A stretch of 63,836 nucleotides of DNA, filler included, from Reclinomonas americana ATCC 50394 (taxonomy: Eukaryota), in the NCBI GenBank assembly GCA_048213135.1. It is 17 parts of 17 records of this genome, joined end to end, with 100 filler letters (N's around TTAATTAATTAA, not from the genome) between each part and the next. Parts side by side here need not be neighbours in the genome. Positions count along the whole stretch, not along the records: positions 22,295 to 36,391 come from AFZH01018944.1; 16 more parts are not named here. One strand, 5' to 3'. This document shows positions 8,820 to 36,800 of the stretch, piece after piece. The translations under genes were made by a program, and so were the position numbers. The first letter of the stretch is position 1. Each line of letters begins with the position of its first letter. Under the pieces are notes generated by a model. That model had not been told where the DNA came from and searched no databases. It saw nothing but the letters and a program-made list of their open reading frames with translations.

Positions 8820-9159
8820 NNNNNNNNNNNNNNNNNNNNNNNNNNNNNNNNNNNNNNNNNNNNTTAATTAATTAANNNNNNNNNNNNNNNNNNNNNNNNN
8901 NNNNNNNNNNNNNNNNNNNCGCCTGTTGGGAGTCGGAAGGGGAAAGGGGAAAAGGGGGAAAGGGGAAGGGGAAAAGGGGAGAAAGGAGAGAAGGGGAAAG
9001 GGGAAGGGCGAAAGAAGGGGAATGGGGAATGGGGAAACGAGTGGGGAAGGGAGAGAAGGGGAAGGGAATGGGGAATGGGGAAGGGAGACAAATTAGGTGG
9101 GCGAAAAAGAAGGGGATGAACGGGAGTGGCGCATAGGAGCGACGCGAAGTACGGAAGAC

Positions 9160-9672: not shown

Positions 9673-9723
9673 GAGGAGCAAGATACCGCAGTTCTACCAA
9701 TCAGCAGCGCCTTCATCCACCTC

Positions 9724-11535: not shown

Positions 11536-13160
11536 ATGCCCGCGTGGAAAAGTAGACAGACTGCCTCTGCTGTGTGGCTGCTGGCGTCATTAATCGTCAC
11601 TGCGTGTGTTCTCGTGCAGGTAAGTCGAACACGCAAACAGCACACTCACACAGGAGGCTTAACACCAGCAGAGTGATGTTTCTTGTCCAGTTTTTGTTCA
11701 CTCTCTCCTCTCTCTCTCTCTTGTGCACTCTGGTTGCTCTCTTGATATACTCTTGTCGTCTCTCTCTTCTCTTTGTTCTGTTCTGCAGTTCTCTCTTTCC
11801 TTTGTGTCTCTGTACAGTATTTTCTGTGTGTGTGTTCCTCTTCTCTCACACTCCCTCTGCGCTCTGTTGTGCTCTCTCTCTCACTCTCTCTCACTGCTCA
11901 CTGCTCTCCTTCTGTGCACTCTGGTTGCTCTCTTGATATACTCTTATCGTTGCTCTCTCTGCTCTTCGTCTTTCTTTGTGCTCTCTGTGTTCTCTGTGCT
12001 CCTCCTCTCTCACACTCTTTCTGCTCTCGCTCGCTGCGCTCTCTCTTCCTGTTCTTCCTGAATGACACTAGTGCTCTGCTTGCTATCTTATGATGTTTTC
12101 TTGTTATCTTGCCCCTTCGCGCTGCCTTGTTCTTCTTCTTCTTCTTCATCTCTCTCTCTCCACATACCCTCTCTCCCCCACATCGCCATGCTGAAGCATT
12201 TGCATTCTGGCTGCATACATGTATGCATGTTCAGTTCGAGTCCTCCTTCCTGCTCATATTGTCACTCACCCTCTTCCCTCGCTTTCCTCTCCGCAGCCAT
12301 CGCATGCCGCCTGCAGCGACTGGGCCTTCAATAGATTTCTTGTTGGCCTCACGTACAACCAGCCTGTGCGCGTGTCGAGCACCACGGCGGCACCACTGAC
12401 GGCGTCCATGATTCGAGCAGCGCGGTGAGTGACGGAGAGAGAGGGAGATGAAGAGGGAAGCAAGGAAGGGAGTTGAGACAGAAAAGACTGAGAGCGTCAT
12501 CAAGAGAGACACGCGTATGGAAAGAGAGAGAGAGAGAGAATAGCGAGAGGCAGAGAGAGACACGCATGCACACAGTCACGCACACATGCAGAGAGAGAGA
12601 GAGAGAGAGAGAGGAGAGGAAGAGTGAGGGAGAGGGAGCGTGAGTGAGAGACAGAGGGGGATGGAAATGGGAAGGATCGGGGAGAGAGGCACTCTCGCGC
12701 TCTCTCTGTCTTTCTCCCCGATCCTTCCTTCATCCTGTTACCATTAGTTCTCTCTCTCCCTCGCACTTGCTCTCTGTGAGAGGAAAGATAAACGAGTGGG
12801 AAGAGAGAATATGTGAGGCTCGATTGTTTGACTGTGGATCTAATGCGCCTGTGGTTTAGCTTCGAACCGGGGGAAACGTGCACGGCGTCGCAGGCAGGTG
12901 CTGCTGCGGGTACAGTGGCGGCCACGGCAATCACCACAGTGTCAGGCACCACCACGTCTGTGGATCTCAGTCTGCCACCTTCAGTTGCGACTCTCTCTCT
13001 CTCTCNNNNNNNNNNNNNNNNNNNNNNNNNNNNNNNNNNNNNNNNNNNNTTAATTAATTAANNNNNNNNNNNNNNNNNNNNNNNNNNNNNNNNNNNNNNN
13101 NNNNNTCTCGTCTCTCGTCTCGTCTCTCTCTCTCGTCGTCTCGTCTCTCTCTCGTCTCTC

Positions 13161-13234
<74 letters not shown>

Positions 13235-13240
13235 CTCTCT

Positions 13241-13300
<60 letters not shown>

Positions 13301-16300
13301 CTCACCTGTCTTCTTTCTTCTCTCATCATTTCTTCGTTTCTTCCTCCCATGTGTTCACCGTCTTTTCTTCTCCCTTCCCCCCTTCCCCTTGCCTTCCTCT
13401 TTCACAGGGTCTCGCCACATCCGGTCTTGTCTCCGTGTGCATCTCGTACATCTCGTCGCCAGGCTACAACTACATCAAAGGTACGCCCACCGTCGAGCTG
13501 TCCCGCGTGAGTTGTCGTGTGCTCACTGTGCCACCCACCGCAGCCTCCTGTCAATCAATCGTGCGTCGGGGTCCCAGCGAGCGTATTGTCGTGTCAGTGA
13601 GCGAGTGATAGGACGCGGCACGACGAGAACGAGAAGACTGAGCGAGTGAGAAAACGCGGGACACCGACAGTACAAGAGAGAGAACCGAGACAAAGCACGC
13701 CATGTTGCGAGATCAGTGAGACGAAGAGGCAACTAGCCAAAGTGGGTGGATGGAAGCAGAAAGAGAGAGGGAAATGCGAACCAGAAGAGTGATGACTGCC
13801 AGTAATAGGAAACGAGGATTAGGCAGCAACGCAGAGCCTTAAAGATTGTGCAAGAGAGAGCGTATACCCACAACCAGACCTATTGCGAGGCAAGTTGATC
13901 TCACGTCTCCTTTTCTTCCGCCTCCCGCAGCGTGTGACTGCATGCACCAGCATAAAGTACAGCTGGACCCCGGAGTCGATCAACGCCAACGATGCCAACG
14001 CTCTCGTCACGTTGGTCGGAGGAGGCTTGTCAGCTGCCGCCATCCGCACGGTGCGTTTCGAACCCGGCCAGCTGTGCACGCCGACCACCGCCGGTGCGAC
14101 ATTCGGCACCGTGACCGGCGGCACACGCACCAACATCGCCGCCGATACGGTGCAGGTCCGAGTCGGTGGCTCGGTGCGTCGTCTACGTCAGCGCCACTGC
14201 CAGTCTTCTCCTGTCGTCGCTCACCATACCTCTGTTGTCCTCTCCTCGTGTTCGTTCAGGGTCTACTTGCCGGCATGTACGCCGTGTGCTTGGATTTTAC
14301 CACGAATCCTGCATCCGGTGCATTTGTCAAGGTCGCGCAGAATGGAAACTGCGATGCGACGTTGGTGAGGGGAGGGAGAGCTCACTACCTCAGTGCATTT
14401 TCTTGTGGTGTACTCACGGGCATCATTCTCGACAGGTTGTCGGTACAGTGAATCGGTTGCTGCCATCAGGGGCCATGTCGATCACGAATGTCGTGCTGAA
14501 CACCAGCACGGGATCGGCGGCCGTGGCGGTCAGCGGAGTCTCAGTCGCAATCACGTTTCGCTGCACCGACGCAAGCACCACAAGCGTCGACATTTACGTG
14601 GTGTATGCGGCCAATACCACTTGTGATCAGTCGTCGGTGGTGGCGTCGGGCGTCGCTGTCGTGTGGTGCGTTGCTGCTGCAGTGCGCCCCTGTTGTTTTA
14701 TGTGTGGAGTATGGCGCGCACGCTCACTTTCTGTCGGCGGCAGCAACGGCGTCGCTACCAATACCGTCAATGTAACTCCGCCGGCAGCCGCCATTGGGTC
14801 GGCCACACGCTACGAGGTTCGCGACGCTACCTGGCGCAGCGGCGGCCTTCGAATTGTATAGTTGCGTGTTGGATGGAAGTGGATCGAGCCGTTCATTCAC
14901 TCTGGTGTTCCGTACCATTTCTCTCTTGCTGGTATCTCCCTCTCTCGCCATTTCTCCCCTCGCTCCTCATTCTTTCATTTTCTCTCACGTATTTTTTCAC
15001 AGGTTCAATTTTGTTTCTCTCTCGACTCTTCTCTCGCTCGAATCTGTTCTCACTCGACTCTGTTCTCGAGCGACGCTCGACTGTTCTCTCGCTCGGCTCT
15101 TCTGTCTTAACTTTCTTCTCTCTCGACACTTCTCTCGCTCGACGCTCTTCTCTCGCTCGACGCTCTTCTCTCGCTCGACGCTCTTCTCTCGCTCGACGCT
15201 CTTCTCTCGCTCGACGCTCTTCTCTCGCTCGACGCTCTTCTCTCGCTCGACGCTCTTCTCTCACTCGACGCTGTTCTCTCGCTCGGCGCTCTTCTCTCGG
15301 TCGACGCTCTTCTCTCTCAACTTTCTGCTCTCTCTTTCTCTCTCTCCATCTCTGTCCATCTTTCTCGCATTCTACTCACGAATTTTCTCCCNNNNNNNNN
15401 NNNNNNNNNNNNNNNNNNNNNNNNNNNNNNNNNNNTTAATTAATTAANNNNNNNNNNNNNNNNNNNNNNNNNNNNNNNNNNNNNNNNNNNNGTGCAAAAT
15501 GCACACATTCTGTTGTCGTCGATCTCTCACTGCGCGCACACCGCATCCCAGTTTACTGTCGTGCCCGACGCGCCGACGTTTTTGCCGAGCATCATTGCCT
15601 CTGCAGCTGCCGGAGCCACCATTATCTTGACGGGCACGTCGTCGCTCACTGTTGCACTTTTGCGATCGGTGCGACTGGAGCCGGCCACAACATGCACCCC
15701 GACGTCTGCGGGAGCCATCAGTGGCACTGTGAATGTTGTTGGCGGCTTTTCGAACTTGGCCGGCGGCACCCGCGTCCAGGCGGCGATTGGCGGGACGGTG
15801 CGGTAGCGGTTTCTCAAATTCTCCTCACTTTTTTTATTACTTATTCACCCATCTCCCCTTTCCCTCTGTGCAGGGTCTACCGCGAGGCGCGTACAGCGTG
15901 TGCGTAGAATACAATGCCGCCCCCGGCGTGTTTGTGCGCGCGGGTCCAGTACAACTGTTGGCGAACTCGGCACCCACTGGCATCTTCCTCAGCGCGCCAA
16001 GTACGTACTTTCCCTCGCAGCCGTCGGTGCAGACCGTTGGTACATTGTCGGCGACCGACAATGACGCCGGCGACTCGTTCACGTTTGCGTTGGCGACCGA
16101 CGGGGTCTTGTGTCCACTGGCCAACAACACGGGATTCAGCTTCCTCGGGCCGATAACGCTGCAGGCGGCGGTGAGTATGGCATCCGTCGGCACACGTGTC
16201 GTTTGCATACAGGTGACCGACGCTCTCGGCTTTACCCGAACCGCGCAAATGTCAATAGGAGAAGGTGCTGTAGAGCTTTAAAGTATTTGGTTTGCCGCCA

Positions 16301-19300
16301 TGCACTTGTTGATGGACTCACTCCGCCTTTACCCTCTCTTCCATGCGGCAGCCAACCTGTCACCAACAGACATTTCACTGTCGGGATTGCAGTCGTTCAT
16401 TCCGTCGGCAGGCGCAGTGCACACGGTTGCCGCGATGCAAGGTGTGCTCCTTGTGATTCCATTGCACAGCCATTCCCCCATTTCAGTGTCTGAGTTGCGT
16501 CTTGTCACGCAGCGACGGATCTGAATGCCGCCGACACGTTTGCGTTTTCACTCGTCAACGATCCTGTGCATTGTCCACTCAACGGCGTCGACAATGCGTC
16601 TTTCGGGACTGCTGGGTCAACTCTGACGGGCGTGGCTGGTATTCCATCGACGGCCAGCGCGGTGCACACTATCTGCTTGCGTGTCACCGACACAGCTGGG
16701 GCAGCATTCACGAAACAGATTGCTGTGGCGGAGCGTTGCGTCGTCGACCCATGTGCCATGTGCCAGCCTTGGCTTTTTGCAATTCACGTATCTGTTCAAC
16801 AGGCAACATGCCACCAACCAATATCGNNNNNNNNNNNNNNNNNNNNNNNNNNNNNNNNNNNNNNNNNNNNTTAATTAATTAANNNNNNNNNNNNNNNNNN
16901 NNNNNNNNNNNNNNNNNNNNNNNNNNATTCTCGTATTTTCCTCATCTCCCACGCTCACTCGCCGATGTGCAGCCACCGACCCCAACGCGTTTGACACGTT
17001 CACCTTTGCGTTGGTCGTTGACGGGATTGTGTGCACCAACAACGACAATGGATTTTTCTCTGTGGATCCGGCGACTGGCGTATTGACTGGTGTCCCCGGG
17101 TTGCCGACCATCGCCATCGCCAAGCTGTTCTTATGCGTACAAGTTACTGACTCGGCCGGCTTCACCATTACCCGGGCGATTGCGCTTGTCGAGAGTTGAG
17201 TGCTCGTATTTGTCTTCAGCAATGATCATATCTCCACTCACAATTCTCATCCTATTTGCTGTAGAAAACGTGCCTCCGACTGTGTTCTACATGACTCCCG
17301 CCGTTGGCATTGATGTGGCGTACGTTCAGCCGACCACGAGATCGTCAATCGTGGGTGTTGCATCTGGTTCGTTCTTGCCCCTGTGATAATCGATGCTACC
17401 ATCCCCTCGCCTCTCTATTCTCACGTGCTTTGTTGGACCGCGCGCAGTTGTGGATCCAAACTCGTGGGATTCATTTACACTTTCTTTCGACAACGACCCG
17501 GGCAACTGTCCTACGTTTGCTGGCATCGATAATGCTAAGTTCAAGTTTTTCGGCAATGCGCTTGCCACACTTCCGGCTCCAAGCCTGCCACAATTACTGC
17601 ATGTGTGCATTCGAGCCGAGGACCTCGCGCACAATGCATTTTGGCTTGAGGTCATGGTGCAAGAGGGTGGTAAGTCTGTGTGTTGCCCCGCAGCCTGCTG
17701 TTTGTGAGTGTCGATACCAATCACGCCACCAACCCAATCAGGGTCCACAACTGCCACACTGTCTGCTCCCGGTGGCTACATCCCCGTAGGCCCTGCGGGC
17801 ATTCTTGGTACGCTCTCGAGCAACACCGCAAGTTTGCCAGAAACAATGACTCTCGACACGCTGTGTACGGGTGGCGGTGCCGAGAACTTCTATTTCTCGA
17901 TTGGCGCCTTGAATGTCCTGTCAAGTGCCGTGTCCATTCCGGCGAGCTCCGGCGGGTATCGGATACTTTGTGTTCGGGAGACTGACTCGGCTGCCAGTAC
18001 ATTTGTGGGCGAGTTGCCAGTACCGGAGAGTACGTGTATCATTTTTGCTGCTGCGCATTGTCCGACTGATTGCTTACAGCGCTGAACTGCTGTGCGGCAC
18101 TCGTGCAGTGAACATGGCCCCTACTGGCGTGTCTGCAGGTGGCGTTTACATCCCCGAGGCGACGGTGGACGGACCTGTTGATGTGTTACTTGGTTTCGTC
18201 GTGCTGCGGCGCGTATGTATGCATTCCCGTCTTGTTGACTTAAATGCGCGCGCTTCGTGGCCAGCTGCGGATCCCAACACCTTTGACGGGTGGGTGTTTT
18301 CGTTTTCCACTGGATGCGTGAATGGCGGAGCGGACAATGGCGACTTTGTCATTGTCGGATCCATGCTTCGCTACAAGAGCCACTTGACGGGGTCACTTAC
18401 CGGCTTGCGAAACATTTGCTTGACGGTCACCGACGCGGCAGGCAACATGGGTCCCGACGTTCCTCTTACAGTCGCTGAGGGTGAGACTTGTGTATGCGCC
18501 TCCGTATGCGTCTTGCTAACGCACTCTGCATGCGGCAGAAAATCTTCCACCGACCGGCATCATCGGCATTACTGCGGCCACCAAGTACACGCCGTCAGCT
18601 GCAGCAATGCACACCGTCACCAGTAATCTTGTGGCCGTTGACGCCAACAAGTCCGGCACGTGGACATTCACGGTCTGTACTCTTATAGTCGTGGTGGGGG
18701 TTTCCGCGTGTCTTTGTGTCGATGTTTTGACGCGACATAAATGATCGTGCAGCTGGTCGCCGATGCCGCCAGGTGCCCAGTGGGACAGGGGGCCGATAAT
18801 GGCGACTTTAGCATCCAGGCCCCTGGAACGGCGCCTGCCACACTGCTGGGCAAAGCTGGCCTGACACCGTCGGCAATCGGCCTCCGTCGTGTGTGCTTGA
18901 ATGTCGTTGACGGTAGCGGAATGTCATATACGGGAGAGTTTGTCATCGCTGAAGGTGTGGATCATGTCTCTTTCTGTTGAGTCGCGCGTCGGACATTCTT
19001 CCATTCATACGTGCGCTCTTACCGCAGCCAATGTTGCGCCGAGTACTGTGGTGCTCACCCCACCTGCACCCACCTACACTCCACTTGCCACTTCGGCGGT
19101 CGCGGTCGCCACCTTTTCTGCCAGTGATGTCAACCTGCAGGATGGCTTCGCGTGAGTGTTGTGTTGCCAGCAGGCTGACGTCTTCGGTTTCGCAAAGCGT
19201 TGACTTCGCCTTTGTCTCTTTTTTCAGCTTTACCTTCGACTCTGGATGTGCAACTGGTGCCGGTGACAATTTGTCGTTCTCCATCAGCGGCGCTGCACTC

Positions 19301-20271
19301 CTGGCCAATGCTGGCATCACCAGTTCCGCCACTGGCAACAAGAAGGTCTGCGTGGTGGCCATTGACACGGGAGCACCGCCGCAGACCTCGCAGCCGTTCT
19401 CGTTCACGGTCGTGGAGAGTTGCGCAACGCGTGCTGCACGCTGTTCTCATGCCTTGGAATGCAACGCATGACTCATGTCTCGTGGCAGACAACTTGCCGC
19501 CGACTGGTATCACGCCGCCGGCAATTGCGACGTACGTCGCCGGTGGACTGGCGACCTCACTTGGCACTCTGGCCGGTTCGTACATGCTTATCGTCCTGCA
19601 AGGGTGCTTTGCGTCTCGTATTACTGAATCACCTGCTCGCCCGCCATACAGCCACCGATCCCAACGCAGCTGACATGCTGGCGTTTGTTGCCGTCGCGGC
19701 CGCTCCGTTTTCGGTTTGCTGCGATTGTGCTAAATGTTGTGCCTCCAGCGTGTCGTGGCATCTCAACTAGTGCTCGTTTTCTTGTGCCTGTACCAGCTGG
19801 TGCTCGACCCTGTATCGTGCCCGCATAATGGCGTCAACAACGGCGACTTTAGTGTGTCGGGATCGACGCTGTCGGTGGCAGCCAGTCTGTCGTCTCTGGC
19901 CTCCGCGACTCGCTACATTTGTGTCCGCGTGGCAGATGCCGCCGGTGCCACGTTCACTCGCGAGATCTCGTTTGCAGAAGTTATCTCCATGCCTACTGGT
20001 ATCGTCGCCAATCCTGTGGCACTGTCATTCACGGCGAATCAAGCTGTGGGGAGCTCCGTGGCATCGCTGTCGGCCATTGACTCGAATCCCGGTGCCCCAC
20101 ACGTGTTCACTCTGGCCACCAGTGGCTCGTGTGCTCACGGCGGCGCTGATAACACGGTTCGTCCAGTCAANNNNNNNNNNNNNNNNNNNNNNNNNNNNNN
20201 NNNNNNNNNNNNNNTTAATTAATTAANNNNNNNNNNNNNNNNNNNNNNNNNNNNNNNNNNNNNNNNNNNNC

Positions 20272-20361
<90 letters not shown>

Positions 20362-22416
20362 CCAATTTCAATCACCAGCAACCGACCCGAATGCGGCCGA
20401 CGCCAACTCGCTGACATTTTCGGTGCGTGCTGCTGAGACAATTGACTTGCCGCAGAAGAATTTTGCTAATCTCATATTTTTGTGGGTGTCGGTGCAGCTG
20501 GTGGTGGATGCAACCAATTGCCCGAACAGCGAGCCTCCGTCGGCAGATTTTTACTTTACGGCGCCGCAGGGCGGAACCGCGAGTCTAATGCTGGTGGCCA
20601 ACACAGCTCCCGCTGCAGTCGGTTCACGCACCATTTGTGTTCGTGTCTCGGATGGACACGTCACCGCCAATTCTCGGACCGCAGAGTTCAACATTATTCA
20701 AGGTCTGTGTGTCTGGCAGACGTAGCCTTTGATGTGCGCGCACATAGCTCACTCCTGGTCGACTGCACGCCAGCCAACTCGCCGCCGACGGACATTACCC
20801 TGACGATTACCAGCTCCGGCATGTATACACCTGTCTCGCCGACCGCTGACGCCATCGGCACTCTTGCGGGTCAGTTGTTGCTGCGGCCGTGTCTCTTTCC
20901 TCGTTCAACCAACAATTGCATGCCACCCCTGTCTGTGCGCACCGCAGCGACGGATGCCGATGTGTTCGACGGGCACCAATTCACGATTGTGACCAATGAC
21001 GGTGTAAACTGCCCGAACACGGGTGGTATCAACTCGGACGATTTCACAATTGTCGGCACCGTGCTGCAAGCCAAGCCATTGTTGAATAGTCTGCTGGTTG
21101 CCGTGCGCTCCATCTGCATCCTTGTCGAAGACTTGCCCGCGCACGCCAAGTACTACAAGGAATTCAAAATTCGTGAAGGTGTGCCGAGTGTCTCCCGTTG
21201 CTGTGATATTCTCCGCTCTGATCCGTTGCGACAACTCGTAGCCAATCTTGCACCGTGTGCCGGTAACCACGGCGTTTTCCCGTGCATTCGTATGACCTCG
21301 ATAAAGTACGTTCCGGAGTCAACTGTTGCCCAGGTACTGTGCGAGTGCGCAAGCCAGTTGCTGTGTCTGTAGGTGTTCGACTAAAAGACATTCCTACCCT
21401 CCCCCTCCCTCCTCTCTCTCTCTCTTTTTCTCTCTCTTGTGTGCGTTATGTGCGCAGGCTGTGGGCACTCTTTCGTGGGTGGACCTGAACGTGTGGGACA
21501 CTGTGACAACAACCATTGTTGGGGGCCGTAATGCAGACGTGTTCCAACTCACCGGCGACAATGTGCTGATGTTCTCCACGGCGGGCGAAGTCCGATCGGG
21601 CCTGGAGGTCATTGTGCAGGTGATGGACTCTGCTGGTCAGCAGTCACGACAGACGTTCTCCATTGACGCTTGTTGCGTGTGCGAGAGTTTGCGCGTCGTT
21701 GTGCGCGATTTGCATCCTGACACTGGATGCGTTGTCAGTGAATGCACCGCCGAAAGCGCCGACTCTGAGCAATGCTCTTTACGACGGGCCGACAGCAACG
21801 GTGGACACTCCAGTTGGCCTGCTGTCGACGTGGGACCCGAATCCGGAACACACAAACAGCACTCTCACGTGGCGCATCTTGCCGGGTGGTGATGGAGACA
21901 ACTTTAATATTTTGAGCACCTTGTGGCCTCCTGTCTTGCGCCTCAAATCACGTCTTGAAGGTCGCTCTGCGCTCTCTGTCACGGTCGAGGTGGCCGGTGT
22001 GTAGTCGTCACATTGCACTACGTTCTTCTCATCGACGACTGACAATATCTCTCTTTCTCTTCAGATCCGCTGGGCCTCACGGCTCAGTCGACGTTCACCG
22101 TCAATTCTCGTTGCGTTGACTCTCTGTGTGTCACAACAGCGTAATGCGATTCAAGACCAGTTCTCAACGCATTTCTCTTTCCTCTCTCTCTCTCNNNNNN
22201 NNNNNNNNNNNNNNNNNNNNNNNNNNNNNNNNNNNNNNTTAATTAATTAANNNNNNNNNNNNNNNNNNNNNNNNNNNNNNNNNNNNNNNNNNNNTACGTA
22301 CCGTACCGTACCGTACTACTTACGTTCGTTCGTCGTCGTACGTCTCTCGTCGTCGTACGTACTAACGAACGTAACGTACGTACGTACGTACGTACGTATA
22401 CTACGTACTACTACTA

Positions 22417-22476
<60 letters not shown>

Positions 22477-24856
22477 TCCCACGCAGGACCGTTTTTATAC
22501 ATATGGAGCCCGGTCTCCATCTGGGTGCGCTTTGCGAAAGCCAAGGCTCACTTCATATGCTCACCGGTCTCAATCAGCAATGTGGAATTGACTCTGACCA
22601 GTCGCGCCAATCGCAACAACTTTTTCGTCATTGCCGGTGAAAACTCACATTTGAGTGCCGGTGCTGGAATGGCACGAGTGCATTTGACTCACACGCTGCC
22701 TTTTCTTCGTGTCTCCTCTGCGTTTGCACAGACTCACAACCGAGTGTTTGCGACGGCTCCACCGTCAACACGCTGGAGTACGTGGTCCCGCACGATGCCA
22801 CCACCGACACACTCGGACACGATGTCGTGCTGACGGACTTGCCGCAACGACGCCTCACCGCGACGACCTTTGTGCTGGTGCAAGGTAATATTCTTGCCGG
22901 TGAAGGCCTTGGCGATTGATCGCTGAACTCATCGTCTCCTCGACAACCGCAGCCCAAGATGTCGGAGTGCAGGTTCCACCGGCTCGTGGCCTCGTCGTGT
23001 CGACCTTGAGTCCCACGGTTCCTGTCGAGTTTATCTGCAATCGTCCAGGTGATTTTTTCTCGCGACAGAGTGGTCAGCGTTTCTTTGTATCTCTCCTAAA
23101 CGCACCTCTGCAGACATGACGCGCGCCACGGTTGTTGTAGTACCGGAGAACACAATCGTTGCCTTTGATGGATCGTTGAGTACTGATGACGGCACAATTG
23201 CGTCCGGCGGCAGTGGCTCGATTCTCGACAGCCCGCTCATTAGTCACTGGTTCGAAATCGACTGTGAGTGCGGGCAGTACATGGTGAACACGGCGACGTT
23301 CTCGTTGAGCGATTTGCAAGGTACGAGTCTTGTTGTAGTGCGTGAAGCGACTGATAAGTGAGAGAGTAACCGTCGCTGCATTGTGTGCATGCGCGCAGTC
23401 CGAAATCGTGACGCAGCAACCGGTGTGTTACACTCTTTGAGTTCACCTTGCCTTGTGCTCAATGCTTGACACTCTCGTTCTTATTGTCGTGCAGACGGCG
23501 ATGCCACTACTCTTCCTGCACCCTTTCGCGTGCTGGTGTACGACTTGGCGAACCCAGTGCAACTTCTCGTTGGCCAGAGTGGACCAGTCCAAGTGGTTTC
23601 CACCCCCGTTGACAACACCACCATCGACACTGGGGACAACACGTCGACCGATGCAAATGGCGGTGACACGTTTCGTACGCCTGCATGGTCAGCTGCCGTT
23701 CAGTTTATTGATTTTTCTGTATTGCTATGCGTAGCACCACCAGTCCATCTAGTGGTAGTGGCAGCAGTAGCAGCAGCGGCGGCAGCAGTAGTGGCACTGG
23801 CACGCCAGCCGACGCCGGCTCAGAATTAACGATTACGGCAGAGTGTGCCTCTTGGCTCAGCTGTCAGTGGCCGGTGGTGCTCGGCTTATCACTCGCGGCT
23901 CTGATTGGCTTGGTGTGCTGTTGGGGCTTGTGCTGCTGTGCTCGGAAACGACGCAAGTCTATGCGCGAAGAGGAGGCCGAAGTTCTGGCAGCCAGTCTGT
24001 TGAAAGCAAGCGCCAAGGCAGCACAACACGGGGGCGATGCGAAGGTGTGCATGGAAGTTTGTGCGGAATGGAGTAAGAGAAAGGGAATGAGAGAAGGGAA
24101 GAGAGAAGGGAAAGAGAGAAGAGAAAGGAAGAGTGAGAGCAAGGAGTGAGAGATGTAAAGAGGGAACTGGATGTTGGGAGGGAGAGGATGGAGTGAGGGG
24201 AAGGACTGAGAGGAAGGAGAGGGAGAAGGGAGTGTGTTACTGATGCTCACCCACGCTGCATCGCTCTGTGATTCCATGCAGCAACTGGCGGAAACGCGGG
24301 ACGACGATGACAGTGCGCCGGTGCCGCCTGCATCGCCACCGCCACCGCCACTGCTGGTACTCGATCACAGTGGGGACTCGGCCGCGACTCTACTGCTTCC
24401 TGGATCACCAGAGGCCTACGTGACCTCTGATGTCGCCGGCAGGTCCACTCGTGTGCAGGTTGGAGTCGGTCGCGACATTCGTCAGCGTTTGCGCCGTTTG
24501 GCGTTCAACTCGCTGCACGCCGCAGATCCTGGTGAGAGTGTCTCTGTAGATTGCTCCTGCTTCGTTTGTCGGCCCGACTCACACATTTCGCAGACATTTC
24601 AGATGCGCCTGCTGCCGTGTCGACCACTGGCGGAGACTTGCAGCGACCGCGCACAGTGGGAGAGTGGATGCAGCTGGCTCGCCGCCGTCTGCTCCAGCTG
24701 CGGAGAGCGGCAGTGGATAGTGGTGAACCTATCGTCCATGTCGACAGGAGACTTGCGGAGTTGGAGGGTCTGCGTTTGAGTCCCTCGCATGACACGTTGG
24801 CGATTGACGAATTAGAGAGATCCTTTTTCCATGAACAATCTGATAGCCCTCAATAA
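11536..24856 (+). CDS. Giant type-I membrane protein: signal peptide, ~4 two-Cys Ig/IPT-like domains, ~14 Cys-bearing cadherin-like repeats, stalk, TM, cytoplasmic tail
   Basis: The N-terminus MPAWKSRQTASAVWLLASLIVTACVLVQ|PSHA-ACS looks like a signal peptide. Repeats of the form N-x-PT..LS..GTL-A-TD-x-D/N..F..VTD occur from about 15960 to 22110. TM WPVVLGLSLAALIGLVCCWGLCCC is followed by RKRRK, and the stop TAA is at 24854-24856. The model crosses five gaps. Confidence 0.8.
15130..15316. repeat. 18-mer tandem repeat (ctctcgctcgacgctctt)n, intronic
   Basis: About 10 near-perfect copies. Confidence 0.92.
23868..23957 (+). other. Transmembrane segment with Cys cluster and basic stop-transfer motif (+ strand giant protein)
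   Basis: WPVVLGLSLAALIGLVCCWGLCCCARKRRK. Confidence 0.85.
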
Positions 24857-24882
24857 ACTAATCCACACGTGTTGTTGTACTA

Positions 24883-27800
24883 CTACTGTTCAGTGCCGTG
24901 CACAAACCGCGAGGGACGGGAGCGGTAGGCCTCGGAGGCAAGAGCGCGTGGGTCAATCACTTGCGGCCAGGCGGAGCGCACAAGTGGCACAGGAGAAGCC
25001 ACCACTGGAGAACCGGCGACGAGCAAGCGATTCGCCAGTGCCTCATTGGGGGGCGACGGCTGACTTGCAGGTGGTGCTGGCCGAGGTGGGGTGCCTAGGC
25101 CAATAAATCTCCGGTCGATGACTTGCGGCCATGCAGATCCCACGAGTGGCACATTCACAGGTGTTGCCGTCTCTCGCCCAATCGCTGCCGACAACGATGC
25201 GGTGGGGACGCTTGGCGCAGCACCATCACTTGCTGGCGCGGCTCGGTTGCGAAGACGTTGGACCAGACGCTGAAGCGGTACCAGAGCGTCAACCTGCGGT
25301 CTTGATTCGTACGCGAATGTGCGAGGCATGGCCGCTCTGCTCGCTGTCGGAGTGCGCCGATTGAGGTGCTGACTGAGACGCGCGAGCAACTCGTTCGAAT
25401 GAGCCGGCACAACTGCGGATGTTGCACGTGCAGCAATAAGTCAAAATATCCATTCCACACGCACTGCACAATATAACTTACCAGCGATAGTTGGCGTTGT
25501 GGGGGACGCGGTAAACGCATTCTGCTGACGCTCACGCTCAGCAGCCGTCAGAGTGGCAGCAATAGAAGTGAGACGAGCTCGGATAGAGTGCGGAGTCAGA
25601 GTCGATGATGATTGTCGGTTACTGCCTCGCAGTCGCCAGGGCAAGTCGCTGACCGCATCTGCAAGCAATGCTACGATGAGACGCATGCACGCACAGCCAC
25701 ACACGGCAACAACCAATCGAACCAGTGGCTGCGGAGAAGTTCACCGCCGGCGGCAACACCAGCCCAGGAGCGACGTCGACTGTGGACGGCGATGATGCAG
25801 CGGGAGTTTCGTAGGATTCTCTCACAGAGGACAATGGATACGCATCCGACTGTGACGATGCCAAGCGAATGAGAAGCAGTTGCTGGCGGAGACAGTGAAC
25901 GCACAACGTCGCGCACCGCCACCGGCATCAATGGCGGTTCCTGTGGCTCTTGGTCAACAAGATATGACTTTAGCGCTGCCAGTTGCTTGGCTACACGGAC
26001 AGCAAGTCGATTTCCACGAGTCGCTGTAACGGGTAGACCTGAATAACAAACGCAGTTGGGCGCAATGACACTCCACACAAGGACTCACCGGTCGCTAACT
26101 GCGGAGGGTGCCGGCGCCTGGCATCCACCCATGCAAGCGTGTTTCCGTCATCCAAGTCATCCATTTCAACATGGCCCTTGCCGTCCTCGACCCCAGCGCT
26201 CGCGCCAACCACAGAATGATTGTCAGCGACGACTGCAGCAATGAATCGTCAGCATCAGCTCGGCACAATGGCTCATCTGACAAATAACGCACGCTGCGCC
26301 TGCAGCTCCTTCTCGTCGGCATGGCGGCGGCGGCGCCAGCAGTATATAAACCAAATGACGTGGAGACCAATAAGAAGCACCGCCGACGCGGCAATCACGG
26401 CCCACAGCCAGCAGCGCAAGCTACCACACATGGCTGCTCCGCCGCCACCGCCCGACACATCACCTCCTCCACTGCCACTGCTGCCAGAGGCAGGTGTCGT
26501 CGCCGGAGAGACAACCACCTGCCCATCGGCAGTGATTTGTACGTCCGCGTCGGCACCGACACCGACCTGCACGCCGTTGCTGGTTATCACCGTGCGCACC
26601 AGGCGGAAGCGGCCACTGCCACCGACAAGCGGCGCTTGTGTGTTGGCCACATCGAGCACCCACGCGCGCAACAAACGCGGACCGTCCCACCCTGATGGTG
26701 GCGGAGTGACGACGTCGGTTTCGGAGCGTGAGAGCGAGCTGGAAGAAGCCGCGGCAGCAGATCCCGAAGTTGAGTTGCTGCACACCATAACACAAGTGAG
26801 CTCACGCACCTCGTCACGCAACTTCAACAACACAACGGCGACGTGCCTCATCGAATCGGGAATCCAGTGGAGCACATTGAGCGATGCGCCGGCACCACAG
26901 AGGGCAGGAACTTCGAAGCGAAGTAGAATGCGCGGATCTGCCAAGTTCAGACTGCGACTGCCTCCGGCAATCGGCAATAGGCGATCAGCCGGATCAAAGA
27001 TTGAGCCAAACGTGTCAACCTCAAAGTTGTGCTCTGCATTCATCGGTCAATGCCAGTCAGAATAGTGCAGTTGATTGCAAGAGGCAATTACAGCAGTTGG
27101 TGGGACGCACCCAGCAGAATCACAGTGCCGACGCGCATTGACGCACGGTTACACGTAAATGTGATGGGAACTGTCGAGTTGGTGGAGAGGATCGTTCCCT
27201 CCACAGGCGTCGTCACCGCAATAAGTGGAGCTACACGCGCGCAACCGCAATGTCAGAGTGAAGAATGGTGCAGATGACGAGGAGGCACCATTGCACACCT
27301 GCCACTCCATAAACGGCCCAACCTGTCACTCGCTTACTCGGCGCGTCGTCCACAATCAGAGCATAGGTATCTTGACCGGACACGGCGTCGACAGAAACTG
27401 TGAAATTGCTCGACAGAACGTTGCGGAATGCTCCGTCGCAAACAGACAGGACATTATCTGCCAGGCATGATAAATACATCTTGAGCAGCGCTTCAAGCTG
27501 CAAACGAGTAACACCAACTGACCAGCCACAGGGAACTGATGGAAGGAGCCACCAACGCGCACAAGCCGCAGATTGACCGTGGTGACCTCAGGCCAATTGC
27601 ACATCCACACCGGATGGTATGCATCGAGGCGAGTGAGCACCAGGTGCGGAATCGGTTCCACCACGGTAATGGCTCGTTCTGTGAGGCACACACACACACA
27701 CACCGATCATGTCAGCCAAACGCTCTTCAAGAAAAGCACATGCTCGATCTCTTGCCGTACCGACAAGCACCACCGAGAAAGTACCAACAGCACCATCGTC

Positions 27801-30800
27801 GAGCACGACGGTAAACTCGACCGTCTCGGAGGCCGCCAGCGACGGAATAATGGCCGTGGATACAAGACCGGCAGGCGGTGATGACGGGACGTTCCACCCC
27901 ACGCCATTGCCGAACGTGCTGTCACAAATGGTGGCACTGTGCACACTGACTACCACCGTAGTGCTCGTACTATTGGAAGAAGGTCGCTGCTGGAACAACA
28001 CGTCGACATTGGCCGTGGCCACAGTCGGATTCTCGCACGACCACATCAGCGAGAGCGGTTCCTGACCGTAGTATGCCACTGCATCAATCAGAGCACATGT
28101 TGAGTGCCACATCGCCATAAATGCCAATCTATGAAAGTGAAAAACCTGGCATTGCCGACGAGGCCAGACGCGTTGTGCCAAGCATTTGCAGCTGAATGGT
28201 TGACATGAACAGCAAGTTGGCACTGATCGTGGAGAACGGATACCACGTCGACGCGTGCCGCACACACAGCTGCAGCCGACGGGCTACCGATGCAGGCGCG
28301 CTGCCGAGGGTGTACGGCACCTGCGAGATGCGAGGTGAATCTAAACGTGCAACACCGAGTTTCAATCCACGAAGAACGCAACCAGCAGTCGACTGCCACC
28401 CCCACTGGGCACACCAACAGTGCCCACTGCCACGCCGGTGGCACATGAGTCGGTAGAAGCCACAATTTGGAAGCGCTCTCGATCGGCATTCAAGTTGACA
28501 CCCATCACTGTCAGCGTGTACGACGTGCTGTCTCGGATGACACGGTGCGATGCCAAGTCATCCACCGACACTGTGAGCGACAGGCGTGATGAGAACACAA
28601 CACACTGCACTACTCAACTACCGCATGAATCGCCTCACCCAGCTGCAACGCAGTGTTGTCCGCCACTGCGCCCCACTGCACTGCGGGATCGGCGCTGGCC
28701 GGTCGCATACATACGTGGTACGCCTGCGCTGTGGCAGTGACGGGAATCGTGACTTTCACCACCAATGTCGAGGGCACACCGCTGGCATCCAGTGTTGTGG
28801 CCACGGCGTTGAGCATGGATGGTACCAGCGGGGCAGCCGGACTGCAGTCTACGTTCCACGGAACCACCGCCACATCCGTACCCACCGTCAAGTTGATGCC
28901 ACTGATGGTGACGCTGACGGACGAGAGCGAGAACGTGGCAGGAACGGTTAGCAGGCGAGGAATCGCCACGGGGGTCAGCGCCGTCGGCCGAGCTGCGAAC
29001 AGTGCAATAGTCAGACATCCTCATCCAGCCTTCGACGTACGGGACAAATACGTGACATACCCAAAGTAATGACATTCAGTCCAGCACCAGCAGCCGCGCC
29101 GACTGGTGTCCACGCAAACGAAGGATCCGCGGCAGCAGAGTTGCGTATACACAGTTGCAAGGCAGATGGCGCGCTCGCTGACGGCGTCACTGCAGAAGGA
29201 AGGACCGTGCGCATCTCAATCTGCATGCTTGATGGCGCGCCGATCGACTGAGTCACCGACGAGGAAACGGCCACCCGCAGTACGACTTGCGTAGACGAGC
29301 TGGCTGCAGTGTCAACCGTGACAAAGCCAAAAGAGGCCGTCGCTGCGCTCGAGCATGACGCATCGGCTGCCACCAAGGCAAACGTATCGCGCGAGGCGTT
29401 CAAGAACAAGCCCGGGACGACAAGTGTCTTTGCCAGGCTGTCAGTAATCATCAGTGTCGGCGATACGGCACCCGTCGACGCTGAGAAAAGGAAAAGGCGG
29501 CGGGAAAATCAGTCAATAAAATAAACAAAGGAAAAGGCGGCATGACATGTCAACAATGCAGACCGAGGATCAGCTGCTGGCCAGGTGCAGCATCACCAAA
29601 CTGCGCACTGGCACTTCCACCCGGTTTGATGCACACCCTGCGCGCACCAAGACAGTGCATGAGTGGATTATGCACATTGACCTGTCCTTGTACATCTCCC
29701 CTCTTAACGCAACTTATACAACCCGGCCGTCAGCGGGAGTGCCAGCGTCAGCGTGGCTGAGGAGGGTGGCGCAGTGACGACCGTGGTAGTGATTGCGCCA
29801 GCCGGGCTGCTACCAGCAGGCACGGTGCACGTAGTCGACGGAAGAGCCACCACGTACTGATCGGCGGCGTCGAGCTGTGCGCCAACCAGCTGCACAGAGA
29901 GTGGCGATGTGCCGATAGACAGAACATTGGGAACGATCGACGAGATCACCACTACGAGAATGATCGTAAGTAATTTCAGCACGCAAACACGCTCGGGAGG
30001 GGATCGACTTTTTGTCGTACCTGCGGTGACATCGCCGTTGCTCGCCACTGGCGTGAACTCAACAAATGGCGTGCCGACATTGACCTGGATACACATGCGC
30101 AGGAATGCGCCGTTTACCAGGTCGGCTGGCACAGGCATGGTGACCAGCAACTCAAGGGACGTGTCGGTTGGTCCAACAGGATCCACTGCACAGCGCGAGT
30201 GAGCAACGCGTCAACAGAAACACGCAGATTGTGGTCACTTCCTCACCAGTGATTGTGCCAACAGCAGCACCGCTGGCACATGTCGTCGACCGCAGCACCA
30301 GCTTGAACACATCGCGCGCCTTGTTCAACCGATTACCTTGAACAGTAATGCGCTTCGCCGATCCGTCGGCAACCGCGACACCAGGACTCAAGGTGACAAC
30401 ACGCACTATGTGGGAAGGCAACGATTTGGGTAACAGCAATGCCACAATAAACACAAGCCTCACACGCTACACACCGATTGACAAGCTGGTCGTGCCCACT
30501 TGCACGTACGGCGAGACACCGTCCACCGAGAAACACACGATGTCTGCACCCAAGTGTGAGACACACACGCACGCCACACCGCACTTAGTAAAGCTATACG
30601 CAACAGCTGCCGGTCGGAATGGGGCCGGGGGTTACACCCAGCGGCAATGATGCTGCCTGCGAGACCACGGTGGTCGATGTGAGCGGAATGCCGGAGCCAT
30701 TGCAGGGAGCCGTGCTGGCAGACTGCAGCTGGAAGAACTGGGTGCTTGCCAGGTTCGTGCCGACAACAGTGAAGCCACTCGACAATGTGTCAGTGGCCGC

Positions 30801-33800
30801 CGTGGATGGTGAAAATCCAGTAGCAGCGACTGCGAGGAGGTGGCAGGCAATCAAAGGCAGTCGTTAGCGATGACGGCATACGGCGACTCGCACGAGAAGA
30901 AGAGAACGAGAACGAAACTGGCGGCAATCACAAACGACTTCTGGAACGTGGCGCCACCGCTGTCGGTGACCCGAATGGTGACAACTACATCTGAGGCTGT
31001 CTGTCCTGCTGCCGTGATGCGTAGCTCAGGTGGCACGGCCGCGTTGTTGATGTTGAACAGTGCATCGCCCTGGCCAGGCACGATGGAGTACACGAAAAAA
31101 TCTTGCGAGTTGGTGTCGACTGCTGAGAGTGTACCAAGCACGACGTTGTTGGCAAACGTCGGTCCCACGTAGGACTGTTTGCTTAGTCCAATATTTGTGG
31201 GCGGCAGGTTACCTGCAGGCATCGGGCATAAGGAAAGACGAAAAATAAGGATTGCGACTCAGCGTCACGAGGGAATCAGAGAGAATAGGAAAGGGGTAGA
31301 GGTGACGAGAGAGGGGAGAGCAATAAGATTGCAAAGCAAGGACAAACGGAAAGACGCAACTTTCGCTAATGGTGAAAACTTCGTCTCGGTACAGGCCGGC
31401 GCTGTCGGTGGCGCGAACAATCACGCTCAAGTTGTTTCCCACCTGACCAGCGTTGCGCACTACCAACGTGGAACCGACGATCGCGAAGAGATTCATATTG
31501 GCGCCCCCGACCAGCGAGAATGTGGCAATATCGGTCACGTTATCGTCAAGCACCGTGAGATTGCCGACGGGTTTGTTGGGAGTGGCAGACGCAGGTGTGT
31601 AAGAGTACGACGACATCAGAACGGCCCGTGGCGGCACCGGAACTAGTGATGAAGCGGTGAGGAATAAGGGAGATGTAACAGAGGTTGAAGACCGCGCTAC
31701 GCACCATCAGTGACGACAAACTCCTTGTCGAGTGATGCCGGGCCGAGTGTATCCGTGACGCGCTGTTTCCATGCAGTCAGTCCAGAGCACGACCACATAC
31801 TGCCCTTCAAAAACAACCAACGCACCACAATGACATGCAGGTTGGTGCCAACCTGGCCGGTGTTCACCAGCACCAGATTGGCACCGAGAATGTTGAACAG
31901 CGTTGAAGACGATCCGCCGACAATCGAAAACACATGCGCCTCCGGAGGCGAAGAGTTGGCATCAACTACAGAGAGTGCACCGATGACGGTGTTCGTCGTC
32001 ACAGTAGCCGGTGTGTACGTGGAGGACGACAGAGAGAGAATGGTGGGTGGCACATTTTCTATGGAGAATAGAATATACACGATGTGAGTTGTTGCCACAC
32101 CAACATGCACTCACGAGCGAGAGACGCACGTTCAGTAACCGTCAGCGTTGAGTCCAGAATGCCACCAGCGCTGTCAGTGGTGCGCACCACCAGCTGCATT
32201 CCGTAGCCTTTAACACCAGCTGACGAGATGCGGAGCTGATTGCCAAAGACTGCGACACAGGGCCTCATGGGTAAGTGCTACCGCGCAGAGATTGGGAAAC
32301 TAACAAACTCCCGTACAAAACTGTTGAAAACAGCGCCCTGCAAGCCCGGCTGAATCGTGTACGTCCACGACTGACAGCAATTGGCGTCCACTGTCGATAA
32401 CGTGCCCACCACCGTGTTCACCGCCAGTGTCGGAGGAACAAACGTGTTTGGCGTCAACGTGGTGGATTGCGGTGGTACATTGGCTGCGGACACGAATACG
32501 AGTGAGCACAACGCCATGTGTCACAAATCTAGCAAGCAGATAAGGTCAAACCTTCGTCGATAGTGAACGTGCGAGTCAGCGTGTTGCCGGCGCTGTCGGT
32601 CACCTGCAATTTGACAGTCAGCAAGGAAACACGAATCTTTCCCACGAAAGAGGCTGCTCCACAAACCTTGACAGTGACCTGCAATCCATTGCCACCTTGA
32701 CCGGCGTTGCGCAGCATGAGAGCGCCTGCCGGCGACACGTCGAAGAGATTCGACTGACCACCAGGCACAATCGACCACGTAAATGCGTCAGCCGTGTTGT
32801 CGTCGACCGCGCTGAGGATGCCGACCACAGCGTTGGCGACGGCAGTCGGTGGCGTGTACGTCAATGAAGACAGCGCAATGGCGGTGGGTGGCACGGGCAC
32901 TGCGCAAAAAGTAGCAATAGTGAGGGGGTGGGAGGCAAGATGGAGACTGTTGGCAAGCAATGACGCAACAGTCGCTGATGACAAAATTGCGGTCGGAGAA
33001 GCCGCCAACCGAGTCCGTCGCTCGAATCTGTGGCGCCACAAAAAATGTCAGTCACTAAGACGCAATGCTGCAACCACACTCTGGCTCTTCTTCGTCAAAT
33101 TACCGTGACAGTCAAGGCAGTGCCGCGCTGACCAGCCGCCACAAAGGCCAACTGGGGTGGCATCGTGGCCAGCACGGTGAAGAGGGCGCCAGAGCCACCA
33201 GGTCGCACGGTAAATGACACAGTTTGGCCAGTGTTCACATCCACAGCACTGAGAATGCCAATGGGCTGCAGGGCGCTGGTGGCCGGTGGAGTGTAGGTGT
33301 TGTTGCTGAGCGAGATGGACGTCGGTGGCACGTTGGCTGGCGGAGGAGGCTTCGTGAGTGTGCCAATCATCGACTCAGGAGACAGGCTGGGTGGTACAGA
33401 CCTTCGTTGATTGTGAAGGTGGACGTGATGGAAAGGCCGCCCGAGTCGGTGGAACGCACTTGCACCAAAAGGCCATTACCGGTGAGTCCCGCGGTGGCCA
33501 CCAACAGGCGATCGTTGCTGATGCTGAAGGCCAGCTGATTGGCACCGCCCACAATCGAGTACGTAAATGTCTCTCCAGTGTTGCTGTCGGTGGTCGTCAG
33601 CTGACCAACAGTGGCACCCACCACGCCCGGCGGCGTGTACAGTTGTGGTGAGAGTGCAAGTGCCGTTGGTGGCACATTGACTGGCCATGGTGCGAGAAAT
33701 CTTGATGAGAAATAACCAGCGACAAGTAGCAGTAAGCGATGACTGACCTTCGTTGAATGTCAGCGTCTGCACCGCACTCCGGCCAGTGTTGTCCGTCACC

Positions 33801-36800
33801 TGCACGCAACAGTCAGCAAGCACAAAGGCAGCGCACTTGGACACGGACAATCCTGTGAACTCACCTGCACAACCACCTGCAGTCCGTTGCCCATCTGGCC
33901 CGCAGAGCGGAGAATCAACTGGTTCCCTTGCACATCGAACAAGGCAGCCGAAGTGCCCCCCACAATGGAGAACGTGAACGTGTCGCTGATGTTGCCGTCC
34001 ACAGCTGTCAATGTGGCGACCGGCATATTTGCAGAAGGCGTGGGTGCGGAATACGTCGTCGTCGACACGGTGATACCCGACGGTGAAACCGGGTCTGTGA
34101 GGATAAGACAATTAAAAAACAACTTAGAAAGGAGGTGCGCATTGCCAACAGACAAAGAATGGCACGCAACCATCGACGACGGTGAATCTGGAAAAGTGGA
34201 GGAGGAGGACGTCACATGTGAGCACACACACACAGACAGATTGAATGCGACACAGTTGATCAACGCAACAGTTTGTCGAAACTGGCCCCGGCGGCATCCG
34301 TGGCTCGAACGACCACGGCGAGGGTGCCTTGCTGACCAATGTTGCGCAACACCAGACGGTTGCCACTCACAATGTCGAATGCAGCTGCATCTGAGCCACC
34401 GACGATACTAAAGGCGTGCACATCGGCAACTGCGACGGAAGAAAGACGGAAAAGATGATCGATGAGCAACAATTGTGTGTACCTAAAGAAGCAATTAAAA
34501 ACCGTTGGCATCAGTGGCTGAGAGAGTGCCCACAACCGTATTGGCTGCCAATGTCGGCGGCAGGTACGATGCAGGGGACAGACCAATGTCCGTGGGGGGG
34601 ACATTCACTGCACGAGAAACAGCGTGTGAGTGTGTTAATTTGAACACATGGGGTTACGATGCTCATCCGAAGCGTACTACTCACCGTCGGTGATGGTAAA
34701 CAACTTCAAGAGCGTGCCACCAGCGCCATCGTCAGTCAGGATCTGAATGCTGAACGAGTGACCCACTTGACCCGCGGCACGAATGCGCAACACGTCGGCT
34801 GCAATGTCAAAAACCGCGAAGTCGCCCACCGGCTGCAGCGTGTAGGTGTGCGACTGTCCGACGTTGCTGTCCTCAGTGGTCAGCGTGCCGACCACCGTGA
34901 ATGGCCCGCTGGTGGGAGGCACATATGTCGTGCCACTCAAATGGATGTCGGTGGGCACGGTGTTCTCCTCCGAGATCAAAAACGATTGCTGGAGAGTGCC
35001 GCCGCGACCGTCGCTGACTTGAACCAGTACTTGCAGGTTGTTGCCCGACTGGCTGGTGTTGACGAGGCGTAGCTGGTTGCCGGAGATGTAGAACAAACTG
35101 GCATCGGCACCGCCAACAATCGAATAGGTGAATGTTGAGGCGGTGTTCGCATCCACGCCTTGAAGGACGCCAACCACTTGCCCTGGCGTCGGATCCAGTG
35201 GCACATACGACGTGCTGTCCAGCAGGAGGTTGGAAGGCTGCACATTGGCTGCGTGAATCAACCATCACGACATGTCAGCACTGGAAACGACAGAGGAAGC
35301 GCATCAACGGGAATGACTCACCCTCATTCAACACAAATGGCTGATCCACAAAGTTGCCGGTGGAGTCTGTCGATCGTACCACCACCTGCAGTCCGTCGCC
35401 GCGTTGTCCGGCGTTCTTGAACACCAGATTGCCATTGACAACATCAAAGAGGGCAGCGTTGGCGCCGCCAACAACCGAGTAGGTGAACGAGTCAGTCGCG
35501 TTGGAGTCGGCGGTCGCCAATGCGCCGACAACCGCATTGGCTGAGGCGGTGGGTGGCACGTAGGTACTGGATGAGAGCGACACCGACGTGGGTGCCACCG
35601 GTACTGCGAGGGAGAGCAATGTGAGTCTCCCAAGGCTGCGTCACATCCCAGTCAATCATCGGCATACCATCGTTGACAGTGAACGGCACATCGAGTGAGG
35701 CACCGGCGGTGTCGGTGGCTCGCACAATCACGGACAGATTGGTTCCCGTCTGACCAGCATTACGCAAGCACAGCTGATTTCCAATGATGGTGAACAGCGC
35801 CTGGTTAGCACCGCCAACGATGGAGAACGTCGTCGTGTCCCAGGCATTGAGGTCGGTGGCGCTCAAAGTGCCCACTGGCTGGTTCGCAGCCAAGGTGGCC
35901 GGCGTGTATGTGTTCGACGAGAGAGAGATGCCGGACGGAGCAACATTGGCTGCGGACGAGTAACGAAGGTTCTGTCTGTGTCAGTATCGCGTCACTCTCC
36001 GTACAAGGGACACGATCAACTCCAGCGCACCATCACCGAGAGACAGCGTCGTATCCACTGTTCCGCCACGGCCGTCGTTTGTCCGCACAATCACCTGCAG
36101 GTTGCGTCCACTCAAGCTCGGCACGGCGGTGCGGATCTGCGATCCAACAACAGCGAACAAGGCCGCATCGGCGCCACCGACTCTGTGGATAGGCACGAGC
36201 GAGTGAGTGATGTGAGCACGCACCGGAGAAATGTCGTCGAGCAGAATGTCGCAACATGGAATAGGTGAATACGTCGCAGCAGTTTGCATCAACGCCTGTC
36301 AATGTGCCGACAACGGTGCCGGCAGGAGACAGCGGTGGAACGCTGTGAGACGTAATGGTGACACCGGTTGGCGGCACGTTGACTGCGCAAANNNNNNNNN
36401 NNNNNNNNNNNNNNNNNNNNNNNNNNNNNNNNNNNTTAATTAATTAANNNNNNNNNNNNNNNNNNNNNNNNNNNNNNNNNNNNNNNNNNNNGATTACTTG
36501 ATTTGGCACCACCGTCGGCGGCACATATGAGGTCGAGCTCAACAACACGCCGGTCGGTGGCACGGGCACATCCGTGATGACAAACGCTTGGTCGACAGAG
36601 GCTGATGCTGAATCCGTAGCTCGCACCGTGACAGAGAGATTCGTGCCAGTGAGTCCCGCCGACGTAATTCGCAGTTGGTCGCCACTAATGTTGAAGAGTG
36701 AACCGGAGCCACCCGGCAGGATCGCGTACGTCACCGTCTGACAGCAGTTGGCGTCGACAGCGGACAGTGTGCCAACCACGGTATTGGCAGCTGCCGAAGG

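Follow-up and report, generated by a model that had tools for sequence, protein, structure and literature searches.

Proteins of the Kre9/KNH family are described as carrying an immunoglobulin (Ig)-like domain of ~95-105 residues, then a Ser/Thr/Gly-rich spacer and a membrane anchor (PMC12091936, PMC11446221), and a role in beta-1,6-glucan assembly is ascribed to the fungal Kre9/Knh1 proteins (PMC12091936). True cadherins have been defined by the calcium motifs LDRE and DxND, and bacterial cadherin-like domains without these motifs have been described (PMC2926784); for the FLO genes, ectopic recombination is reported to yield chimaeras (PMC3512402). In the present study, we analysed a stretch of 63,836 nucleotides (the window), composed of contigs chained across gaps, from the assembly of Reclinomonas americana ATCC 50394 (GCA_048213135.1). 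It contains two convergent giant genes, gene A on the plus strand and gene B on the minus strand, each encoding a membrane-proximal stalk of two domains (D1 and D2), a spacer, a transmembrane (TM) helix and a cytoplasmic tail. The two stalks are old paralogs within a genome-wide family. With a probability of about 0.65, we propose that this base is the structural pedestal of a modular adhesin or receptor family, and that the adjacency of A and B reflects history and is not a functional unit.

Both stalks lie on a single contig (C3477, AFZH01018944.1; window 22295-36391), and thus the convergent layout is not a scaffolding artefact. Exons were inferred from DNA alone, using GT/AG boundaries and comparison with paralogs, the latter serving as a guide in setting the exon ends of B. 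A first-pass annotation had suggested that A and B are paralogs sharing the stalk and TM segment, and all the motif pairs that it quoted were found in the six-frame translation at their place and strand. Pairwise alignment of the spliced stalks, which it had named beforehand as a check, was clearly significant (blastp E-value 7e-17) and bore out the paralogy; the absence of alignment, named as a refutation, did not arise. In the two-domain ectodomain part, without the Gly/Ser spacer and without the TM segment, 77 of 216 residues are identical (35.6%) and the score is 186, compared with a mean of 36 and a maximum of 65 in 1000 global shuffles (z 25.5) and a mean of 40 and a maximum of 84 in 1000 shuffles within ten-residue windows (z 16.7). 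Furthermore, two phase 1 introns occupy aligned positions (A 22636/22732 and B 27523/27457; A 22884/22953 and B 27299/27230), and the introns after these two differ in position. Each of the two has a single hydrophobic stretch (19-residue mean hydropathy 2.40 in A and 2.46 in B), and a Cys pair lies immediately outside the TM helix in both. At the DNA level no similarity between A and B is left, the best blastn match being 21 nucleotides with an E-value of 0.1. Judged from these alignments, the paralogy of the stalks is real and old.

The genome searched comprises 108 Mb in 16,441 contigs of an intron-rich eukaryote. The stalk was tallied at 29 places on 23 contigs, which would correspond to roughly 15 stalk genes once likely haplotype pairs and split contigs are collapsed. 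These counts are lower bounds; 20 of 36 candidates were confirmed with the B stalk as query, 8 of 11 with an A exon, and queries with other members gave 11 of 18, 7 of 10 and 16 of 46. Of the two things that the first-pass annotation had wished to see searched for, the stalk domain proved widespread in this genome, and the tail-to-tail layout was found again on contig C470 only. This contig is colinear with window 1291 to 53787 at 85-97% identity, and because the colinearity extends over unrelated flanking genes, we read it as the probable other haplotype of the A/B locus, a segmental duplicate or a second strain being the alternatives.

The closest paralog of A is on C9380 (49% identity, compared with only 36% between A and B), and the closest paralogs of B are on C210, C36 (twice) and C9263 (99-74%). 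One A-type paralog was found, as against at least five other B-type loci. In a tree of 23 stalks, A grouped with its C470 counterpart and C9380 (support 97/99), and B with C210, the C470 counterpart, the two C36 copies and C9263 (95/95). A clade uniting the four A and B rows was rejected by the approximately unbiased test (p-AU 7e-94). On this phylogeny, both A and B have closer relatives than one another. Not included in the first tree were C3520 and C4345, where only the C-terminal end is present, C20 and C431, whose stalks consist mostly of N, and a second copy each on C5498 and C6041; a second tree added one of these second copies (partial) and dropped four near-identical rows. For the members on C65, C218, C5498 and C259, no cadherin-like repeat was present in the DNA read upstream of the stalk. 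C5498 and C6041 carry, at 1500-9400 on the minus strand, a tandem pair of short members with stalks ~40% identical, the downstream one being ~4 kb long with a head that by eye is vWA-like. At C878 ~18277 (minus strand, convergent) and C259:8600-9300 (minus strand), other genes with cadherin-like repeats lie a short way downstream of a stalk gene.

The stalk is composed of two tandem Ig-like beta-sandwiches, most likely of the Kre9/KNH-like type, and a Cys pair is conserved in each of them. This assignment draws on profile matches and a structural model. D1 of the intronless paralog on C5498 matched Pfam Kre9_KNH (PF10342) over 94 of 94 profile positions (E-value 0.0034), with 18.5 bits where the gathering score is 24.6, and the stalk of this paralog matched Big_7 above the Pfam cut-off; single exons of the window had no Kre9_KNH match in Pfam. 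Among Atlas language-model features, Kre9/KNH ranked first for C5498 (0.92, 181 shared features) with a recognition value of 1755, below the level of strong scores, and a second paralog reached only 0.75, to Big_3_3. An initial fold model resolved D2 alone. The AlphaFold2 model of the C5498 stalk has two all-beta domains (predicted local distance difference test score, pLDDT, 74; D1 weaker), and the known structures closest to it are tandem Fn3/Ig-like domains (Z 9.6, root-mean-square deviation 4.0, 176 aligned, many ties). The stalk Cys are invariant in the alignment (18/18, 21/21, 23/23 and 23/23 rows); the row of A at the first Cys column came from an intron frame, and its true Cys aligns in the spliced A/B alignment. 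The pairs would form disulfides. Comparison of D1 with D2 was not significant.

The base therefore invites comparison with Kre9/KNH proteins, with which it shares an Ig-like domain of ~95-105 residues, a spacer and a membrane anchor, together with the full-length, sub-cut-off profile match in C5498 D1. However, the fungal Kre9/Knh1 proteins have a single N-terminal domain and are secreted or anchored by glycosylphosphatidylinositol (GPI), whereas here two to three domains stand in tandem next to the membrane, a TM helix and a long tail replace the GPI signal, and the proteins are thousands of residues long. Each stalk domain, unlike those of Kre9/KNH, has the invariant Cys pair. In a representative library of 1.84 billion sequences, the search for stalk homologs outside this genome gave two matches, neither of them judged homologous; one was a low-complexity repeat and the other a bacterial protein of generic Ig-like character. 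Word-index searches gave none, and neither these nor the library search yielded a bacterial homolog; a metagenome scan with one B exon gave 261 pattern matches, none of them confirmed. These negatives are weak evidence. Among PDB sequences nothing fell under an E-value of 0.15. The literature searched, which reached few subscription papers, contained no account of a tandem base of this kind in protists. Single D1-like domains occur at C30:237534-237809 and C28:80704-81000, the one on C30 being internal, after NHL-like and IPT-like modules (by eye).

Above the base, the first-pass annotation had recognised IPT and cadherin blocks in differing order and had concluded that domains were shuffled. 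The order does differ, and one profile detects the rod repeats of both genes; neither label reaches Pfam cut-offs, and the homology of the IPT blocks is unproven, since hhalign aligned them only weakly (probability 3.2%, E-value 0.014). None of seven IPT-like exon pieces matched Pfam TIG, the modules being split over exons. As in the true cadherins of animals, choanoflagellates and oomycetes, the rods consist of repeats of comparable length, arranged in tandem within a protein that crosses the membrane once, with three conserved acidic positions per repeat (62/65, 60/64 and 52/52 in B). Nevertheless, LDRE and DxND are both absent from the consensus of 76 B and 16 A rod-repeat matches, and no cadherin family reached the Pfam cut-off in the rods (best, Cadherin_CELSR2_9th, E-value 0.011, 16.3 versus 36.8 bits). 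Because these motifs are absent, the rods are, on their consensus, not true cadherins. Bacterial fibrillar adhesins with cadherin-like/Big rods are similar in having a head, a long rod of ~93-residue repeats and a conserved base, and the A and B repeats, without LDRE and DxND, score to Big_9 and He_PIG below the cut-off. In contrast to these adhesins, the genes described here are intron-rich and eukaryotic, mostly with one repeat per exon, and encode a type I TM anchor with a cytoplasmic tail. A cadherin-like repeat is ~4.5 nm long. At this length per repeat, the rod of B would measure about 0.3 micrometre.

The B-type loci share this rod and differ at both ends. Among C470, C36a, C36b, C210, C20 and C431, identity over the rod, the IPT-like block and the base is 89-96%; the B copies are as close to one another as B is to its homologous locus on C470 (92-95%). 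The heads differ, being Cys-rich on C470 and Gly-rich on both C36 copies, and the tails, although homologous and with short motifs in common, are only 36-56% identical. This pattern would be explained by old loci with a homogenised middle or by recent copying with exchange of heads. Yeast FLO-type adhesins are alike in being paralogous surface genes with variable heads over a shared repeat rod and base. They are unlike in that the repeats here are folded and Ig-like and the anchor is a TM helix; no sequence relation is claimed, and recombination would follow here from identity patterns alone.

The Cys-rich head lies at C470:97100-100900 (minus strand), on the probable other haplotype, and the sole exon tested had no Pfam match; the B-gene head at this locus is visible on C470 alone. 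On C36, two full B-type genes (71694-117200, minus strand; 148400-191584, plus strand) stand head to head. Both have the same Gly-rich head, and the DNA downstream of them is the same for ~15 kb; they represent either a recent large inverted duplication or two joined haplotypes. An intron-rich protein kinase gene directly follows each copy on the same strand (~70330-65000, minus; 194200 on, plus). Its kinase exon has a sub-cut-off Pfam match (E-value 0.001); by eye, the gene has an SH2-like end, a piece of which had no Pfam match. We considered and rejected the kinase as a receptor-kinase tail of the B copies; in C36b, a stop codon ends the tail ahead of the kinase, which is read as a separate gene. 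At C20:260700-261200 (plus strand), where the masked stalk of a B copy lies upstream, an open reading frame resembles by eye a retroelement-type endonuclease, and the gene may be interrupted.

Taken together, A and B belong to two subfamilies of type I membrane surface proteins, within a family found across the genome. At their base, all members have two Ig-like, Kre9/KNH-like domains, or three in some cases, followed by a low-complexity spacer, a single TM helix and a tail that diverges between members. Most likely, this base works as a stiff pedestal, stabilised by disulfides, on which interchangeable ectodomains are anchored and oriented, namely a head, cadherin-like rods of 0 to ~70 repeats and IPT-like blocks. 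B would thereby hold its head ~0.3 micrometre off the cell, where it could bind prey, substrate or other cells, and A would be a shorter version. The rod and base of the B type may be kept near-identical by ectopic recombination or recent copying, with heads and tails diverging. The A/B pair is not special in itself, but it marks a family of giant surface proteins that is specific to this lineage and shares one base. With no homolog detected outside the genome, this base offers a means of listing the family members although the assembly is fragmented, and the B-type loci, with a near-identical rod of ~6,000 residues under different heads, are a candidate for a recombination-varied adhesin repertoire in a protist.

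Several points weigh against the pedestal proposal. The Kre9_KNH profile matches one of 14 alignment rows, under the Pfam cut-off, the Atlas value given above is not a strong score, and D1 was modelled at low confidence (blocks of 47-73) in the C5498 paralog, not in A or B. The exon models were made by inspection, on DNA sequence only, and the tree alignment was built automatically from exon matches, with a few intron-edge residues kept. Near-identical copies in a fragmented assembly may in part be haplotypes, mixed strains or misjoins through repeats, which would mimic head swapping. Deep branches of the tree are weak, and a deep sisterhood of the A and B lineages was not rejected (p-AU 0.08). 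Finally, two family genes 26 nucleotides apart are unlikely by pure chance, so that a local origin or selected linkage is possible, and three other neighbouring family pairs group as local duplicates.

The local origin, which the first-pass annotation had proposed as an old inverted duplication, is the alternative that survives best, although we regard it as doubtful. The A and B lineages would have been born at this locus, later each seeding copies elsewhere, with no functional pairing implied. The stop codons of A and B are separated by only 26 nucleotides (24857-24882), and the other family neighbours are local duplicates of various ages, namely the C5498 tandem pair (~40% identical), the C65 tandem pair and the C36 head-to-head pair; the sisterhood test just mentioned also leaves room for it. 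An exclusive A/B clade is nevertheless rejected and the closest paralogs lie elsewhere. In free trees, moreover, A is farther from B than is the C10164/C9144/C1826 group (support 85/86 and 84/85), the weak deep branches offer nothing positive linking A to B, and no DNA similarity between the two remains. Such a duplication would be compatible with the pedestal proposal and might tentatively account for the adjacency.

It is considerably less probable that A and B are short and long co-receptors, binding in cis through their stalks or juxtamembrane Cys and co-regulated through overlapping 3' ends. The A and B transcripts probably do overlap at their 3' ends, as judged from the spacing of the stops; the juxtamembrane Cys pair is kept in both proteins, and C470 retains the layout together with the two terminal reading frames, with a shift in the last codons of A. 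In clustered protocadherins, cis dimers are mediated by membrane-proximal domains, which offers a precedent. However, the colinearity of C470 over unrelated flanking genes means that it does not represent independent conservation. No second stalk gene was present within 15 kb downstream of any of three other full B copies (11.6-14.4 kb readable each), nor in any of 12 regions downstream of stalk genes, of which five had less than 9 kb readable (a control recovered A). Pairing is therefore not a family rule, and one A-type paralog stands against at least five other B-type loci. The earlier suggestion of a receptor pair acting together found no support, the layout being absent from 3/3 other full B copies. 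Slightly more improbable still is a broader version, in which the D1-D2 base and the juxtamembrane Cys form a cis-assembly socket combining members of a head-swapping adhesin repertoire, with A and B, through their overlapping 3' ends, as co- or counter-regulated short and long partners; if true, it would constitute a combinatorial recognition system in a unicellular eukaryote, made of bacterial-type parts. A merely convergent likeness, due to low-complexity spacers, TM segments and generic Ig strands, can be dismissed, because the alignment, whose full-length score spacers and TM segments do raise (local-shuffle mean 74), stays well beyond all 2000 shuffles when stripped of them and includes two coinciding introns, and intermediate paralogs connect the two stalks.

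Gene A is predicted to encode ~2,400 residues (an estimate), arranged as a signal-like exon, three IPT-like modules, one Kre9/KNH-like domain, at least 13 cadherin-like repeats, D1, D2, spacer, TM and tail. All its features are on the plus strand. The first exon (11536-11619, 28 residues) is signal-peptide-like, with a hydrophobic core judged by eye. The N-terminal block (12297-15963) spans two assembly gaps and holds the three two-Cys IPT-like modules, with no Pfam TIG match, and the Kre9/KNH-like domain (14472-14660; Kre9_KNH E-value 0.043, under the Pfam cut-off), whose comparison with the stalk profile was not significant. The rod (15964-22109) has a Cys in most repeats and matches Big_9 below the cut-off (E-value 0.03). 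Its join to the stalk runs through unread DNA, both here (22195-22294) and on C470 (965 N); a join of this kind was read directly in the A-type paralog C9380. D1 (22487-22884; exons 22487-22636 and 22732-22884) has paralogs on C9380, C258 and C259. D2 (22953-23603; exons 22953-23048, 23114-23320, probably 23399-23422, and 23495 on) was delimited by alignment to B and paralogs; the 24-nucleotide exon 23399-23422 is optional in frame, and C9380 has a small exon at that place. The Gly/Ser spacer, Cys pair, TM helix (core ~23874-23930), Cys cluster and basic run occupy 23735-24044. The cytoplasmic tail (24282-24856; exons ~24282-24531 and 24594-24856) ends at the stop 24854-24856. A canonical polyadenylation hexamer at 24852-24857 (plus strand) overlaps this stop codon.

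Gene B, on the minus strand, would encode ~8,000 residues (an estimate), in the order head (outside the window), 67 repeats, ~6 IPT-like modules, D0, D1, D2, spacer, TM and tail. The rod of 67 cadherin-like repeats, mostly one per exon, occupies 30926-55480; the 5' end is on the far side of the gap at 55755, and the order is supported by C470. The ~6 IPT-like modules (28365-30863) were counted by eye and have no Pfam match. D0 (27761-28078), an extra two-Cys domain without counterpart in A, shows a weak likeness, to D1 only (E-value 0.013). D1 spans 27299-27678 (exons 27678-27523 and 27457-27299) and D2 26597-27230 (exons 27230-27111, 27033-26847, and 26777 on). The last intron of D2 has a probable GC donor; it is open in frame here and frame-breaking in C470 and C9263. 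The spacer, Cys pair, TM helix (core ~26401-26345), Cys and basic run follow at 26298-26596. The Pro-rich cytoplasmic tail covers 24883-26297, its last exon lying within the open reading frame 25440-24883 and its inner exons being partly fixed; a Trp-Pro motif, common to B-type tails, is repeated twice. The last tail exons of A and B run to their stops, with no kinase and no Pfam family at the cut-off. Within 200 nucleotides past the B stop, no canonical polyadenylation hexamer was seen by eye.

Among the flanking genes, a serine-carboxypeptidase-like gene, a C2H2 zinc-finger gene, a piece of a P-type ATPase and a small LYR-like gene were recognised by eye at 900-10500, and these are colinear on C470. 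On the other side, 56100-60600 (minus strand) contains a gene with EGF-like Cys-rich repeats followed by a domain that looks bacterial by eye, and 62600-63200 (minus strand) encodes an EF-hand protein, which we take to resemble flagellar calcium-binding proteins.

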